IMG/VR virus record: IMGVR_UViG_2537562231_000020
Direction: 5' to 3' (one strand)
Length of the DNA: 7,934 nt
Origin: a virus
Taxonomy: Duplodnaviria; Heunggongvirae; Uroviricota; Caudoviricetes
The notes under the pieces are model-generated. The model was given only the letters and a program-made list of their open reading frames with translations, was not told where the DNA came from and made no database searches. The position numbers were made by a program, and so were the translations under genes. Position 1 is the first letter of the stretch. Every line of letters begins with the position of its first letter. Below, one piece after another: positions 1,004-5,284 of this stretch.

Positions 1004-3058
1004 ATGTCAGACTCCAAGTGGAAAATGCTCTCCGCCATGCCCGGAGAGTTTTCAGTCAAGGTTGCCGGTGGCACGGTGGCATTTATTGAAAGCCCTTTCC
1101 GCCCTTCGGGTAATAAAGGGGGGATCACCTTCGCAGACTGCGTGATCCGCTTCAGCACGAAAGAGCCATTATGGGTAATGCCGGTATCCGGTAATCCCAG
1201 TGCAGAAATCACCAGTTCAGGCGTGACTGGCATCATTCCAATCACATCTGACGTGGCCGGAACGCTCACGCCCTCCGACTGGAATGCACCGGATAACGCC
1301 GGGCCTTCCGGTAGCACGAATGGCAGCAGTTCAGAGCCGGAATATTACTTTGTTGTCATTCTCGCGGGTCAGTCAAATGGCATGGCCTACGGCGAGGGGC
1401 TGCCGTTACCGGATTCGTTTGACCGCCCGGACCCACGCATTAAGCAACTGGCACGCCGCAGTACGGTAACGCCCAACGGTACGTCGTGTACATACAACGA
1501 CATCATTCCGGCAGACCACTGCCTGCATGATGTTCAGGATATGAGCGGGATAAACCACCCGAAAGCTGATCTGGCAAAAGGCCAGTACGGGACTGTCGGT
1601 CAGGGGTTGCATATTGCCAAAAAACTGCTTCCCTATATCCCACAGAATGCCGGGATACTTCTGGTGCCCTGTTGTCGTGGCGGGTCAGCATTCACCACTG
1701 GAGCCGACGGCTCATTCAGTGAGGCCAGCGGTGCTTCCGCTGATTCTTCACGCTGGGGGGCCGGTAAACCTCTGTATCAGGACCTGGTAAGCCGCACCAA
1801 AGTCGCGCTGGCGAAAAACCCGAAAAACAAACTTCTGGCTGTGGTCTGGATGCAGGGAGAGGCAGACCTTGCCTCAGGAAGCCAGCAGCATAATAGTTTA
1901 TTCACGGCCATGGTTCAGCAGTTCAGAACTGACCTGGCTCCGCTTGCTGCGCAGTGCGTGAGTGGAAATGCCACCACGGTGCCGTGGATTTGCGGTGATA
2001 CCACGTATTACTGGAAAAACGCTGGCACCGATAAATATGAGGCAGTATACGGTGGCTACAAAGGCAAGGAAGCACAGAAAATTTTCTTTGTACCGTTCCT
2101 GACGGATGAGAATGGACAGAGCACGCCAACGAATGCTCCGGCGGAAGACCCGGATATTGTGGCTGTCGGGTATTACGGTGCAGCATCCCGAACCCAGGGC
2201 AGTTTTGTTTCGACACAGCGTGACAGCCATTTCAGCTCATGGGCACGCAGGGGCGTCATTTCAGACCGTCTGGCCTCAGCTATTATGCTCCATGCAGGGC
2301 GCACGGCTGAACTGATGCGCGGGCAGACCGTGACACCACCGGATGAGAAGCCGTCACCTGATACACCATCAAAACCGTCCACGCCACCCGCAGACACCAC
2401 GACGATGAGTACGCTATTTGCTTACCGGGCATCTGAGTCTGAAGGACGGTTGACACCACAGGGTTGGGCTGCCGGAGGTGGCAAGGCTCAAATCGTGGAT
2501 GATGCCGGAGCCAGCGGGGGTAAGGCAATGAAACTGACCAAGGAAACAGGAAGAGCCCCCTGGTACCTTGAGCATGATGCTGGTAATGGTGCGGACCTGC
2601 TGGGTAAAGGTGGTCTTGTCAGTTGTCGTTTTAAACTCGATGGCGCGCTTACGGCTAATCAGTACGCACTGGCGCTGTACTGGCCGGTTTCTGCCCTGCC
2701 GCAAGGGGTTACTCTGGAAGGAAATGCCGGTCATAACCTGCTGGCATCGTTCTACGTACAGAGCGATGCCACAGACCTTAACGTGATGTATCACAAAGGA
2801 AACACGGCGCAGAACACGAAGCTGGGGTCATTCGGCGCATTTAATAACGAATGGCATACGCTGGGCTTCCGTTTTGCCGGTAACAACAGTATTGAGGTGA
2901 CGCCGGTCATTGATGGTAAGGACGGGACACCATTCATGCTGTCGCAGTCTCCGGTCGGCACGTTTACGGCAGACAAGTTGCGCGTGACCGATATCACTAA
3001 AAATGCGACTTACCCGGTACTGATTGACAGTATCGTGGTGGAAGTGAATAACGCGTAA
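1004..3058 (+). CDS. SASA/SGNH-type carbohydrate O-acetylesterase (prophage NanS-p-like 9-O-acetyl-sialate esterase) with Pro/Thr linker and C-terminal lectin-like domain
   Basis: 684-aa ORF. Catalytic block VVILAGQSNGMAYGEG (GQSN motif) and downstream VVWMQGEADL (QGE-x-D block) are the signatures of the sialate O-acetylesterase (SASA/DUF303) family. A Pro/Thr-rich linker (PPDEKPSPDTPSKPSTPPADTTT, about nt 2336-2410) precedes a roughly 200-aa beta-rich C-terminal domain that looks lectin or ConA-like. Size and layout resemble the prophage NanS-p esterases of enterohaemorrhagic E. coli. Confidence 0.75.
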   Translation: MSDSKWKMLSAMPGEFSVKVAGGTVAFIESPFRPSGNKGGITFADCVIRFSTKEPLWVMPVSGNPSAEITSSGVTGIIPITSDVAGTLTPSDWNAPDNAGPSGSTNGSSSEPEYYFVVILAGQSNGMAYGEGLPLPDSFDRPDPRIKQLARRSTVTPNGTSCTYNDIIPADHCLHDVQDMSGINHPKADLAKGQYGTVGQGLHIAKKLLPYIPQNAGILLVPCCRGGSAFTTGADGSFSEASGASADSSRWGAGKPLYQDLVSRTKVALAKNPKNKLLAVVWMQGEADLASGSQQHNSLFTAMVQQFRTDLAPLAAQCVSGNATTVPWICGDTTYYWKNAGTDKYEAVYGGYKGKEAQKIFFVPFLTDENGQSTPTNAPAEDPDIVAVGYYGAASRTQGSFVSTQRDSHFSSWARRGVISDRLASAIMLHAGRTAELMRGQTVTPPDEKPSPDTPSKPSTPPADTTTMSTLFAYRASESEGRLTPQGWAAGGGKAQIVDDAGASGGKAMKLTKETGRAPWYLEHDAGNGADLLGKGGLVSCRFKLDGALTANQYALALYWPVSALPQGVTLEGNAGHNLLASFYVQSDATDLNVMYHKGNTAQNTKLGSFGAFNNEWHTLGFRFAGNNSIEVTPVIDGKDGTPFMLSQSPVGTFTADKLRVTDITKNATYPVLIDSIVVEVNNA

Positions 3059-3073
3059 GCAGGATAAAAAAAT

Positions 3074-3106
3074 GCCGCCGGTAAGGGAAAACAAGAAACC
3101 GGCGGC
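3074..3106. terminator. Stem-loop just downstream of the esterase gene; likely a transcript terminator, orientation ambiguous
   Basis: Perfect 9-bp stem GCCGCCGGT (3074-3082) / ACCGGCGGC (3098-3106) with a 15-nt loop. It is flanked by an A7 run upstream (3066-3072) and AAAAAG downstream, so the U-tract is on the minus-strand side. Confidence 0.35.
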
Positions 3107-3202
3107 AAAAAGATCGTTATATCCAAAGCAAAAAATGCAGTGCACCTTTTTACCTAACAGATATTACCGGTGTCAACACCATGTCAATAATTGGGAGGGA
3201 TA

Positions 3203-3385
3203 ATGACATTTTTACAGCTTATTTTATTGTATTTCTGCACGGCAGTATGTGCGTTATATCTGGTGAGTGGTGGTTATAAGGCCATCAGAAATTATGTTCG
3301 CCGCAAAATTGAGGACGCAGCAGCTGAAAAACTCAGTAAAACAGCGCAGGTAACTCCGCTCCCAAAAGACCCGACCCAGCCCTGA
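3203..3385 (+). CDS. Hypothetical small membrane protein (single N-terminal transmembrane helix)
   Basis: ATG at 3203 preceded by GGGAGGG (3193-3199). The ORF track starts it at TTG 3191; I prefer the ATG. Product MTFLQLILLYFCTAVCALYLVSGGYKAIRNYVRRKIEDAAAEKLSKTAQVTPLPKDPTQP has a hydrophobic N-terminus and a charged tail. I recognise no family. Confidence 0.45.
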   Translation: MTFLQLILLYFCTAVCALYLVSGGYKAIRNYVRRKIEDAAAEKLSKTAQVTPLPKDPTQP

Positions 3386-3420
3386 TTGCAGGGCTTTATT
3401 CCCGCATAAGGAGGATATAC

Positions 3421-3675
3421 ATGCCAGAAATTAAAGGCACCGTCACTGAAGACCTGGTAAAACAGGCACTGTATTCCGGTGAAGTAAATAAGTTGCTGAA
3501 AGCGCAGGTCCGCAAGGATTTTGAGGCACAAATCGACACTTACGTTGATGAAGTGCTGGCAAAACTTATTGGGCCAGCAGTTGCGGCCAGTGATGCTGAT
3601 AATGAGCCGAAAACCGACGCGCAGCCAGAGCAACCAGACCCGGCTCAGCCCGGAACTGACAGTACCATGATGTAA
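3421..3675 (+). CDS. Hypothetical small acidic protein
   Basis: 84-aa ORF with a strong RBS (AAGGAGG about 8 nt upstream of the ATG). Helical-looking N-terminal half and an acidic, Pro/Gln-rich, probably disordered C-terminal tail. I recognise no family. Confidence 0.5.
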   Translation: MPEIKGTVTEDLVKQALYSGEVNKLLKAQVRKDFEAQIDTYVDEVLAKLIGPAVAASDADNEPKTDAQPEQPDPAQPGTDSTMM

Positions 3676-3680
3676 CAATA

Positions 3681-3708
3681 CAAACCGGTGGTGTCCTCTG
3701 CCGGTTTG
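3681..3708. terminator. Hairpin between convergent genes (possible bidirectional terminator)
   Basis: Perfect 8-bp stem CAAACCGG (3681-3688) / CCGGTTTG (3701-3708) with a 12-nt loop, 6 nt after the stop of the 84-aa ORF and upstream of the convergent minus-strand gene end at 3843. U-tract is weak. Confidence 0.3.
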
Positions 3709-3842
3709 ACACTAATGAAAACATCTTTGCCGCTATCCAGCCATATGTAATCGCTGGATAGTATTTCGTATTCAGAAATATAGCTGCTTATGGAGCAGTC
3801 AATCCTGCTTCCCCATCCGGGCAGGCAAATGAACCGGTATCA

Positions 3843-4136
3843 TTAGTCCGATTCACGCTTTTGTAGAATCGTTCCCAGAATGCTATACAGCTCATTAGCC
3901 TGTTGCTCCATCATTGAGACGGAGGCTATACGGTGCAAAGTGATTTCAGGAGGTGGCACACCTCCATCTTCTTGCTGTGGAGGAAAAACATAAGATTTAA
4001 TAAAAAAGTTGAAGCATATGAACTCTCCCGCACTCGAACTGTATTTGCAGGCATCTGAATAATCGGAAAAATAATCATTATAGATTTCCGCATTTTCAAT
4101 CATTTTTCGATTTCTCGTCGTTACATGATTGTCCAT
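3843..4136 (-). CDS. Hypothetical protein, low-GC moron-like gene
   Basis: 97-aa minus-strand ORF with RBS AAGAGG 7-8 nt upstream of the ATG (complement of 4137-4150). Markedly AT-rich relative to flanking phage genes. Divergent from com/mom with its own AT-rich upstream region. I recognise no family. Confidence 0.5.
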   Translation of the reverse strand: MDNHVTTRNRKMIENAEIYNDYFSDYSDACKYSSSAGEFICFNFFIKSYVFPPQQEDGGVPPPEITLHRIASVSMMEQQANELYSILGTILQKRESD

Positions 4137-4392
4137 AGCAGCCTCTTACGCTGGCAATTAACCAATTGACTTCTATAAATTAGTTGATTTGTTTGCTTTG
4201 CGGTATTCAAATGTACAATCATTCAGCACTTATGCGTTACAGCACCGTTTAAAATTAGTGATCAAACTCATAAATTTTCGCTAATGACATTTCGTGTTAT
4301 TTGTTGTATCAATTAAATAAATCAAATCGATCGTTTTTGTCGATCGATTGAGTGATAAAGATATCAACAACAAAGCAGGAGGTTATGCGGCC
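4137..4392. promoter_or_regulatory. AT-rich divergent intergenic control region with a GATC triad and an ATCGATCG/CGATCGAT palindrome upstream of com
   Basis: 256-bp AT-rich spacer between divergent genes. Sigma70-like hexamers are present (for example TTTGCT 4192-4197 with TACAAT 4214-4219; ATGACA 4284-4289 with TATCAA 4307-4312). Three GATC sites at 4260, 4329 and 4342; the last two sit in the inverted repeat ATCGATCG (4326-4333) ... CGATCGAT (4341-4348). Exact promoter positions are not determinable by eye. Confidence 0.4.
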
Positions 4393-4593
4393 ATGTATCG
4401 AAACATACGGTGCCGACATTGTAACAAGCTACTGGCACGAGCCAGCTTCAGTTATCTGGAAGTTAAATGTCCGCGCTGTAAAACCCTCAATCAAATCACA
4501 TCTCAGAGCGCCACAGAGCACCCCACATACACAAGGAAATCCTGTCGTGGGGAACAGAAAGCAAGTTACATCCCGTATCATCAGCACGCCTGA
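4393..4593 (+). CDS. com: Com-like zinc-finger translational activator
   Basis: ATG at 4393 with RBS AGGAGG (4377-4382). Product [32 protein letters not shown]... has the paired C-x2-C zinc-finger layout and near-identical spacing to phage Mu Com as I recall it (IRCKNCNKLL...IEVRCPRCK). The ORF-track start at TTG 4348 is an upstream extension I consider unlikely. Confidence 0.85.
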
Positions 4594-5284
4594 ACTTATT
4601 CACTATAACGACAATATCGTCGGTTATGGCTCCCGTGAGTTACGGGTTGAGACAATAAGTTGCTGGCTGGCCCGGCTGGTCGTCGTCAATAAACATTACA
4701 GCCATCGTTTCGTAAATAATTCCTACCTTCATCTGGGCATATTTTCAGAACGGGAGCTGGTTGGCGTAATGCAATGGGGTTATGCCCTTAATCCAAACAA
4801 TGGTGCACGCGTCGTAACTGGCACGCAGAACCGCGAATATATGGAGCTTAACCGGTTATGGCTGCATGACTGTATGCCGAGAAACTCCGAATCAAGGGCA
4901 ATCAGTTACGCGCTCAAACTAATCAGACAACTTTATCCGCAGGTGCAGTGGGTTCAGTCGTTTGCAGATGAGCGTTGTGGCTGTCTTGGTGTCGTGTACC
5001 AGGCAAGCAATTTTGATTATGTAGGCAGTCATGAAACAACATTCTATGAACTTGATGGCGAGTGGTATCACGAGATTTGCAAGAATGCAATCAAACGAGG
5101 AGGACAGCGAGGTGAACATCTGCGGGCTAATATCGACAGAGCCAGTGTTCATAAATTCCGTCAGTTTCGTTACATCCGGTTTCTGGACAAGAGAGCCAGA
5201 AAACGCCTTAACACAAAGCTATTCAAAGTCCAGCCTTACCCAAAACCACAAACAGTTAAAACTGGTTTGAAAGAGAGTGAATGA
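4547..5284 (+). CDS. mom: Mom-like DNA modification protein (acyltransferase-type adenine modification; anti-restriction)
   Basis: Long ORF in a different frame overlapping the 3' end of com, as in the Mu com-mom operon, and sitting downstream of a Gin-family invertase as in Mu. 3' end is firm (stop 5282-5284). The start is uncertain: I placed it at GTG 4547, which is in frame with AAGGA 9 nt upstream, giving 245 aa; the first in-frame ATG is much further downstream. Assignment is mainly by gene context; I could not verify the Mom sequence from memory. Confidence 0.6.

Follow-up and report, generated by a model that had tools for sequence, protein, structure and literature searches.

A predicted two-part Dam-methylation-sensitive OxyR operator upstream of com-mom in a Mu-like prophage of Escherichia coli

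In bacteriophage Mu, three GATC sites upstream of mom are bound by OxyR if they are unmethylated, the promoter Pmom is activated by the C protein and translation of mom depends on Com. The three sites (GATC1, GATC2 and GATC3) precede the com ATG by 109, 91 and 78 bp and follow each other at distances of 18 and 13 bp. When the Mu transcription start (+1) was placed at position 2247 of L002 via the published -58..+20 fragment, the three sites came to lie at -87, -69 and -56. The Mu operator, with its half-sites ATAGAAAACGACGAT and ATCGGTAATACAGAT spaced by 31 bp, extends from about -99 to -54 and is thus located upstream of the C site.

Three further systems are relevant for comparison. The agn43 (flu) gene is governed by an OxyR/Dam switch for which heritable ON/OFF switching is documented (PMC4872104). 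In P22 gtr, three half-sites (A, ATCGGTAACAACGAT; B, ATAGATAAAAACTAT; C, ATCGCTTGTATCGAT) have their centres 32 bp apart; A and C each contain a 13-bp GATC pair, B contains none, and the alternative occupancy of AB (activating) or BC (repressing) by OxyR leads to bistability. OxyR no longer bound the AB and BC probes of gtr once they carried Dam methylation, and methylation of the GATC pair is by itself enough to prevent binding (PMC2909390). The opvAB operator comprises four half-sites and four GATC sites with OxyR as the activator; some of its half-sites agree with the consensus in no more than 7-8 of 10 positions and they are spaced for reduced OxyR (PMC4856963).

Here, we analysed the region upstream of com and mom in a Mu-like E. 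coli prophage. By comparison with the systems described above, positions 4299-4349 probably constitute a two-part Dam-methylation-sensitive OxyR operator that would control com-mom transcription, with OxyR binding and dependence on Dam being predicted from the homology, spacing, conservation and taxonomic distribution reported below.

The com-mom locus and its GATC sites

The analysed stretch of 7934 bp (called the window throughout) contains the right end of a Mu-like E. coli prophage. A Gin-type invertase (346-918) with 74% identity to Mu Gin up to residue 184 is encoded in its left part, and 3.4 kb of cargo (1004-4136) lie between gin and the operator, whereas in Mu gin ends inside the operator. 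Downstream of the intergenic region, com (4393-4593, plus strand, ATG at 4393) encodes a zinc-ribbon translational activator of 66 amino acids with 45% identity to Mu Com. It is followed by mom (4547-5284, plus strand; PF25680), which encodes a DNA adenine-modification enzyme, shares about 72% DNA identity with Mu mom and starts with a GTG that overlaps the end of com. In 100%-identical copies from other strains, the RefSeq annotation of these genes is Com-family regulator and Mom. Lysogens of this prophage include the strains DLI.5a and JKHS016. The ribosome-binding site AGGAGG of com (4378-4383, plus strand) was read from the sequence and is kept within the lineage. A com-mom operon with overlapping genes, placed at the right end of a transposable prophage, is a Mu-type trait, and the locus is orthologous to that of Mu. 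The prophage terminus coincides with window position 5412. From 5413 onward the window matches intact tape-measure genes of lambdoid STEC prophages at 100% identity, which indicates that the Mu-like element transposed into the tail gene of another prophage; no carrier of the exact prophage/tape-measure junction was found among the complete E. coli genome collection.

Upstream of com, GATC occurs at 4260, 4329 and 4342, just as the earlier reading of the sequence without database searches (the sequence-only reading) had described, and at just eight other positions across the window, which is GATC-poor as a whole (11 sites versus 27.7 expected). The sites at 4329 and 4342 belong to an inverted repeat with 9-nt arms, AATCGATCG (4325-4333) and CGATCGATT (4341-4349), around a 7-nt gap. 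This palindrome (AATCGATCG-N7-CGATCGATT, 4325-4349) is real and even perfect, where it had been called near-perfect, and its placement immediately upstream of the ribosome-binding site turned out to be loose, since 28 bp separate the end of the palindrome from AGGAGG and 43 bp from the com ATG.

The clustering of GATC sites in this single sequence is unusual only at the margin. When 11 sites were placed at random, three of them fell within 82 bp in 4.6% of the trials and a pair within 13 bp was obtained in 17%. The AT-rich intergenic region 4137-4392 holds three sites where 0.8 are expected by composition (Poisson P = 0.048), and in a 39-kb sibling prophage the palindrome upstream of com contains the only 13-bp GATC pair, the chance of finding one such pair somewhere in that sequence being 27%. 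Because these single-sequence statistics are marginal, significance must come from comparison, and the comparisons appear to lend more than chance support to the palindromic sites 4329 and 4342 only.

Half-sites in register with Mu mom, agn43 and gtr

The palindrome encloses an OxyR-like half-site, ATCGTTTTTGTCGAT (half-site 2, 4330-4344), which matches the consensus ATAGxTxxxAxCTAT at 7 of 10 positions and carries a Dam site at each edge. The Dam site at the left edge (4329-4332) is the homologue of Mu GATC2 and agn43 GATC-II, the one at the right edge (4342-4345) is the homologue of Mu GATC3 and agn43 GATC-III, and together they form a 13-bp pair. The (G)ATCGxTxxxxxCGAT(C) form of half-site 2 is also found in agn43, in Mu and in the gtr half-sites A and C. 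Further upstream, the GATC-free sequence ATTTGTTGTATCAAT (half-site 1, 4299-4313) likewise matches the consensus at 7 of 10 positions; it is the top-scoring half-site in the range -36..-18 and is centred 31 bp above the GATC pair. The two half-sites are thus 31 bp apart, versus 31 bp in Mu, 32 bp in agn43 and 32 bp in gtr. The spacing of the half-sites and the GATC sites at a half-site edge, by which Dam-sensitive OxyR operators (Mu mom, agn43, gtr and opvAB) can be recognized, are therefore both found in the window.

Window positions 4296-4352 were aligned with MAFFT to the Mu mom region, agn43 and two other com lineages without internal gaps and with both half-sites in register. Half-site 1 aligns with ATAGAAAACGACGAT of Mu and, again gap-free, with ATAGAATAAAACGAT of agn43. 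An insertion of about 9 bp relative to Mu between the half-sites, as read by eye, was ruled out by this gap-free register. Mu GATC2 and GATC3 and the pair in the window share the 13-bp spacing and the common flanks AAATCGATCG...GATCGATT, so that the palindrome can be regarded as the GATC-bearing half of the predicted OxyR operator, apparently orthologous to the Mu mom control region. Of the Mu-type arrangement of three GATC sites at 18 and 13 bp, the window has only the 13-bp pair: Mu uses three sites and the window two, and the position equivalent to Mu GATC1 reads AATT (4311-4314). Relative to Mu, the distance between operator and com is also 27 bp shorter (51 bp from the last GATC to the com ATG in the window, 78 bp in Mu), which bears out the earlier remark that the palindrome lies nearer to the start codon than in Mu.

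At the level of the sequence itself, 21 of 23 bases are identical between the agn43 operator core ATCGATCGTTTATATCGATCGAT and the corresponding window sequence ATCGATCGTTTTTGTCGATCGAT. The agn43 half-sites (ATAGAATAAAACGAT and ATCGTTTATATCGAT) are arranged in the same manner, with the partner half-site 32 bp upstream. The agn43 operator differs in that its GATC sites are spaced by 19 and 13 bp, the additional one being placed at the right-hand edge of half-site 1, and in that it controls an autotransporter and has neither an activator nor a Com layer. In terms of composition the window is gtr-like rather than Mu-like, as it combines a two-GATC half-site with a GATC-free one in the manner of OxyR(AB) and OxyR(BC); gtr contains three half-sites and four GATC sites, whereas in the window no third half-site is evident beside the two. 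With opvAB it shares several OxyR half-sites with overlapping GATC sites and the spacing for reduced OxyR (PMC4856963), and it differs from opvAB in the 13-bp pair within one half-site, of which there is none among the opvAB GATC sites.

Scoring against the textbook consensus at a half-site spacing of 22 bp gave 13-14 out of 20 for the window, Mu and agn43 alike and was dropped as evidence, at least 13 out of 20 being reached in about 18% of shuffles of the AT-rich intergenic region. The plain consensus score is thus not significant in AT-rich DNA, and the argument rests instead on register, conservation and identity with proven operators. In place of consensus scoring, the spacing of 31-32 bp taken from the literature was used together with tests across lineages, for which 33 distinct com-upstream contexts were scored for OxyR half-sites at each offset. 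The mean half-site score was 6.15 at offset -31 versus about 2.8 at other offsets. With lineage groups drawn by eye, 9 of the 13 independent com lineages had their best upstream half-site at an offset of -31 or -32 (binomial P = 7.6e-7).

Conservation and spread of the predicted operator module

Neither half-site varies among 13 distinct variants of the prophage lineage, in which the 16-bp spacer between them shows three variable positions and an indel. Downstream of the palindrome, 4350-4366 is variable and the region of the ribosome-binding site is conserved again. The invariance of the half-sites within the lineage could partly mirror recent common ancestry.

Relatives share a conserved mobile module (4298-4560, plus strand) that comprises the operator, com and the start of translation of the next gene, and they have either differing upstream cargo or a differing downstream enzyme, namely a C5 methylase replacing mom. 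Of the 235 E. coli records that match, most are homologous to the window from 4298 onward, and this left edge of the module immediately precedes the first base of half-site 1. In a Mu-like phage that sits within an Stx1a phage, homology is confined to 4298-4560 and 5312-5412 (the terminal 101 bp), and a C5-cytosine methylase takes the place of mom. In different prophages the same cassette is found ahead of Mom, a C5 methylase or an N6/N4 methylase. Methylases replacing mom downstream of com were already known in other Mu-like prophages (PMC3299994).

For a comparison across hosts, 80 Mom loci were gathered from species-representative genomes. A 13-bp GATC pair was present upstream of mom in 9 of the 15 Enterobacterales loci versus 0 of the 65 others, which belong to Desulfovibrio, alpha-proteobacteria, Pseudomonas and so on (Fisher P = 2e-8). 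The loci outside the Enterobacterales contain more GATC per kb than those within, yet they are free of the pair. Enterobacterales have Dam and OxyR, and to our knowledge the other host groups of these loci (Desulfovibrio, alpha-proteobacteria, Pseudomonas and others) are without Dam; the restriction of the pair to Enterobacterales is what a Dam-linked function predicts. The host of the window prophage is E. coli, so it belongs to the hosts in which Dam-sensitive OxyR operators are expected. No 13-bp pair was detected in the Mom loci without com, which comprise some Yersinia and Serratia loci and 34 viral contigs, and the 34 viral contigs have zero GATC in the 200 bp upstream of mom. In the accessible literature we found neither a comparative description of Mom regulatory regions or of such an operator arrangement, nor a methylome study of relevance, nor a report on protected GATC sites at com/mom in prophages.

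Promoter position, alternative explanations and the predicted switch

A sigma-70 scan of 4050-4450 returned no plus-strand promoter, and two candidates are proposed from the sequence. Candidate promoter A (4284-4312, plus strand) is composed of ATGACA (4284-4289), a 17-bp spacer and TATCAA (4307-4312), and was missed by the scan because the last base of its -10 hexamer is not T. Its elements ATGAC(A/T) and TATCAA are present in 13 of 13 lineage variants, and the sequence upstream of them is unrelated between sub-lineages. Use of promoter A would mean that the operator reaches from the -10 hexamer to about +25, as it does in agn43. For the latter, the MG1655 record lists the isrC RNA immediately before flu, beginning at GATC-I; if the isrC start is the agn43 start, the agn43 operator is located just downstream of the start, which resembles the situation at candidate promoter A. 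For candidate promoter B (4354-4362, plus strand), the -10 element may be GATAAA (4354-4359) or AAAGAT (4357-4362). The hexamer is degenerate and variable in the window lineage (GATAAA or GAGAAA), and related short-spacing lineages have a good -10 (TATACT, TATAGT or TATCAT) 11-14 bp past the second GATC. If promoter B is used, half-site 2 would lie over the -35/spacer region as at gtr OxyR(BC), and the promoter-proximal pair of gtr at -46/-33, which overlaps the promoter, would be the closest parallel.

Both candidates are poor, and an overlap of operator and promoter like that of gtr or agn43 is probable. Neither in the alignment nor in the interval between palindrome and com was a counterpart found to the Mu ATAACC-type C motif and the -35/T6/-10/+1 block of Mu. 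For this reason an operator-promoter overlap is proposed: in contrast to the Mu operator upstream of the C site, the operator in the window would have to overlap or abut the core promoter. Since bound OxyR would occlude RNA polymerase at either candidate promoter, repression is expected on unmethylated DNA.

A search of the prophage for an activator of the Mu C/Mor type, proposed in the sequence-only reading, was fruitful in one respect. The window ends short of the region concerned, and a C orthologue is known from sibling copies of the prophage, which in this respect resemble Mu. The protein, WP_000852372.1, is 140 amino acids long and shares 40% of its residues with Mu C and 28% with Mor; its gene immediately precedes the lysozyme gene in a sibling that is 100% identical over window positions 4000-4700 (operator, com and mom start). 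An orthologue thus exists in siblings with the identical cassette, but a Mu-type C site was not found between the palindrome and com. A GC-rich motif, CCGCAAAnCCnGCCCC, derived from two late-promoter candidates in the sibling prophage, had no match near com, which is a weak negative as it builds on two source sequences only.

These observations bear on the idea that the palindrome is bound by another protein, for example by the C orthologue with the palindrome as its activator site at -35, or that Dam methylation acts on RNA polymerase or SeqA with no involvement of OxyR. C-family proteins bind dyad-symmetric sites, the palindrome sits where Mu has its C site relative to com, the C-site/core-promoter block of Mu is missing and the OxyR score by consensus only is not significant. 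We nevertheless regard such OxyR-free control as unlikely, because the palindrome that agn43 uses as its OxyR operator (21/23) functions at a locus that has no C protein, and because the palindrome recurs beside unrelated genes in other phage contigs. The late-promoter motif CCGCAAAnCCnGCCCC is moreover unrelated to the palindrome besides being unmatched near com, and binding of another protein does not predict a partner half-site at the exact OxyR spacing across lineages.

Alternatively, the region could be the relic of a Mu-type control region that decays, is conserved only through the youth of the lineage and regulates nothing. Against this stands that in the 13 variants the flanks and the spacer have diverged while the 30 half-site bases are unchanged, and that the cassette has been maintained ahead of Mom, the C5 methylase and the N6/N4 methylase in different prophages. 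These findings make a relic decidedly improbable, even though one of the three Mu GATC sites is gone (4311-4314 read AATT), the -10 candidates are degenerate and the core promoter block of Mu is absent.

The sequence-only reading had grouped the GATC sites 4260, 4329 and 4342 into one Dam/OxyR control region of the Mu style with altered geometry. The part of this proposal that concerns the pair is supported by its homology to Mu GATC2 and GATC3, but the three-site picture does not hold, as 4260 is unconserved. This site is situated 69 bp upstream of the pair, outside the conserved operator-com block (from about 4298 onward), and is present only in the sub-lineage of the window and CI5 (CI5/L022), where it is kept; most relatives that retain the pair lack it. 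In every other lineage the third site is found at 18-19 or 31 bp. No OxyR-like half-site covers 4260 at a period of 31-32 bp from half-site 1, and the nearest 7/10 match, centred at 4277 and 29 bp off half-site 1, excludes it. The true equivalent of Mu GATC1 is the AATT mentioned above. A single region built on all three sites is accordingly very unlikely despite the excess of GATC in the intergenic region (3 versus 0.8 expected, Poisson P = 0.048) and the use of three sites by both Mu and agn43, and as judged from the comparison of relatives GATC 4260 is no part of the operator.

That the palindrome merely forms a hairpin, either as a minus-strand intrinsic terminator or as a stem-loop in the 5'-UTR of the com mRNA with incidental GATC sites, is least plausible of all: there is a terminator-like minus-strand match (4349-4325; a 9-bp stem followed by TGATTTATTT) and the hairpin is part of the minimum-free-energy fold, but the folding energy of 4315-4400 is ordinary (z = -1.1; 29 of 200 shuffles as good), no Rfam family scored above chance (sole match E = 0.36, far below the gathering score), no more than 4 G-C pairs hold the stem together, the T run is broken up, no minus-strand gene lies upstream to be terminated, lineages keep the GATC sites and their 13-bp spacing while the arm sequence outside GATC changes, and a restriction to Enterobacterales is not expected of a hairpin.

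The two-part OxyR operator, our preferred reading, suggests the following course of events. An OxyR tetramer would occupy both half-sites as long as the two GATC sites lack methylation, or possibly while they are hemimethylated directly after replication, and would occlude the weak com-mom promoter that overlaps or adjoins the operator. Full Dam methylation of 4329 and 4342 would block OxyR binding, and transcription could go ahead, probably in late lytic growth and aided by the C orthologue of the prophage. Com would then activate the translation of mom. A switch of a known type would in this way keep mom, a toxic DNA-modification gene, silent.

A more far-reaching possibility, which we consider doubtful, is that the operator moved onto the core promoter, lost the Mu-type C site and forms, together with com, a portable cassette (4298-4560) that could switch heritably between ON and OFF in lysogens. 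Provided that OxyR competes with Dam here as at agn43 and gtr, a subpopulation of lysogens would express a genome-wide DNA-modification enzyme; if true, this would be an epigenetic switch over an epigenetic writer, independent of lytic induction. A new principle would emerge only if the cassette is bistable in lysogens. The practical value lies in annotation and experimental design.

For the family as a whole, the comparisons indicate that the Dam/OxyR control of mom worked out in Mu is probably conserved across the com-bearing Mu-like prophages of Enterobacterales. Its conserved core appears to be a 13-bp GATC pair in one OxyR half-site with a partner half-site 31-32 bp away rather than three GATC sites, a sequence signature that is simple enough to find more Dam/OxyR switches in phage and bacterial genomes. 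The predicted operator travels with com as a module that is found ahead of different DNA-modification enzymes.

Right end of the prophage and cargo genes

The Mu-like prophage has its right end at window position 5412 (terminal sequence ...CGCCGCGCTATA), and from 5413 onward the window matches, with 100% identity, tape-measure genes that are intact in lambdoid STEC prophages. The Mu-like phage therefore inserted by transposition into the tape-measure gene of another prophage. As a result of transposition into this gene, the 555-aa ORF at 5277-6944, which spans the 5412/5413 junction, is a chimera. The ORF that follows the tape-measure sequence (6937-7278) resembles lambda tail protein M as judged by eye. 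No match to the 5412/5413 junction was found among the complete E. coli genomes of the collection; Stx phages carrying a Mu-like phage at other insertion sites are present in GenBank.

No intervening sequence separates gin from the mom operator in Mu, whereas in the window prophage 3.4 kb of cargo lies between the two (1004-4136). Encoded in this cargo is a protein of 684 aa that combines a sialate O-acetylesterase (SASA) domain with DUF6645; DUF1378 and then DUF826 genes follow, and this trio (esterase/DUF1378/DUF826) is similar to the nanS-p region of Stx phages. A divergent ORF of 86-97 aa on the - strand, for which Pfam returned no match, also belongs to the cargo and is not the same from one sub-lineage to the next.

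GATC content and the com-upstream region

GATC is strongly depleted in the window, with 11 sites observed versus 27.7 expected and a count of at least 11 in 200 of 200 shuffles, and CTAG does not occur anywhere in the window. In the sibling prophage (L086), 115 GATC sites were observed versus about 150 expected.

GATC 4260 lies within an imperfect inverted repeat at 4251-4278 (AAAATTAGTGA / TCATAAATTTT; arms 82% complementary, 6 nt between them), which is kept only in the window/CI5 sub-lineage and belongs to a block travelling with the divergent - strand ORF. At the beginning of the com-upstream intergenic region (4146-4155) lies the 10-mer TTACGCTGGC, which is also found in the sibling prophage at about 9000-9020 (- strand), just upstream of a lysozyme gene; a hand calculation puts the probability of such a coincidental match at about 3%. 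Related short-spacing lineages (L030, L031 and L032) carry a small hairpin directly before the com RBS, about 20-45 bp before the ATG, that differs on both arms (CTGCCAC...GTGGCA in L030 versus GTGCCG...CGGCA in L032) and has no counterpart in the window lineage.

The palindrome with and without com and mom

In three compared sequences the palindrome that the window has before com (4325-4349) and a com gene precede a DNA methylase in the place of mom: a C5-cytosine DNA methylase in L088 (8340-9614) and in the Stx1a phage L229 (3501-4802), and an N6/N4 DNA methylase in L139 (2314-3315). Operator and com thus form a portable cassette that serves as the control unit of different DNA-modification enzymes. 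Mid-contig Mom homologues of 62-70% identity (L051-L084, L156-L160 and L199) have no upstream com and none of them carries the 13-bp GATC pair; at all 34 viral com-less loci, the 200 bp upstream of mom contain zero GATC. These homologues presumably represent a Mom class under different regulation.

The exact ATCGATCG-N7-CGATCGAT palindrome, accompanied at a distance of 18-19 bp by a third GATC as in the agn43/Mu signature, also occurs in other AT-rich phage contigs: L093 (5107), L112 (8826), L128 (10158) and L133 (1007), as well as L098 (13135), where its neighbours are a glycosyltransferase of family 2 and a DUF4942 gene, L106 (605), next to a family-25 LPS glycosyltransferase, and L111 (11445), beside a prophage tail-fibre gene. 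The palindromes of these seven contigs may be additional Dam/OxyR phase-variation switches.
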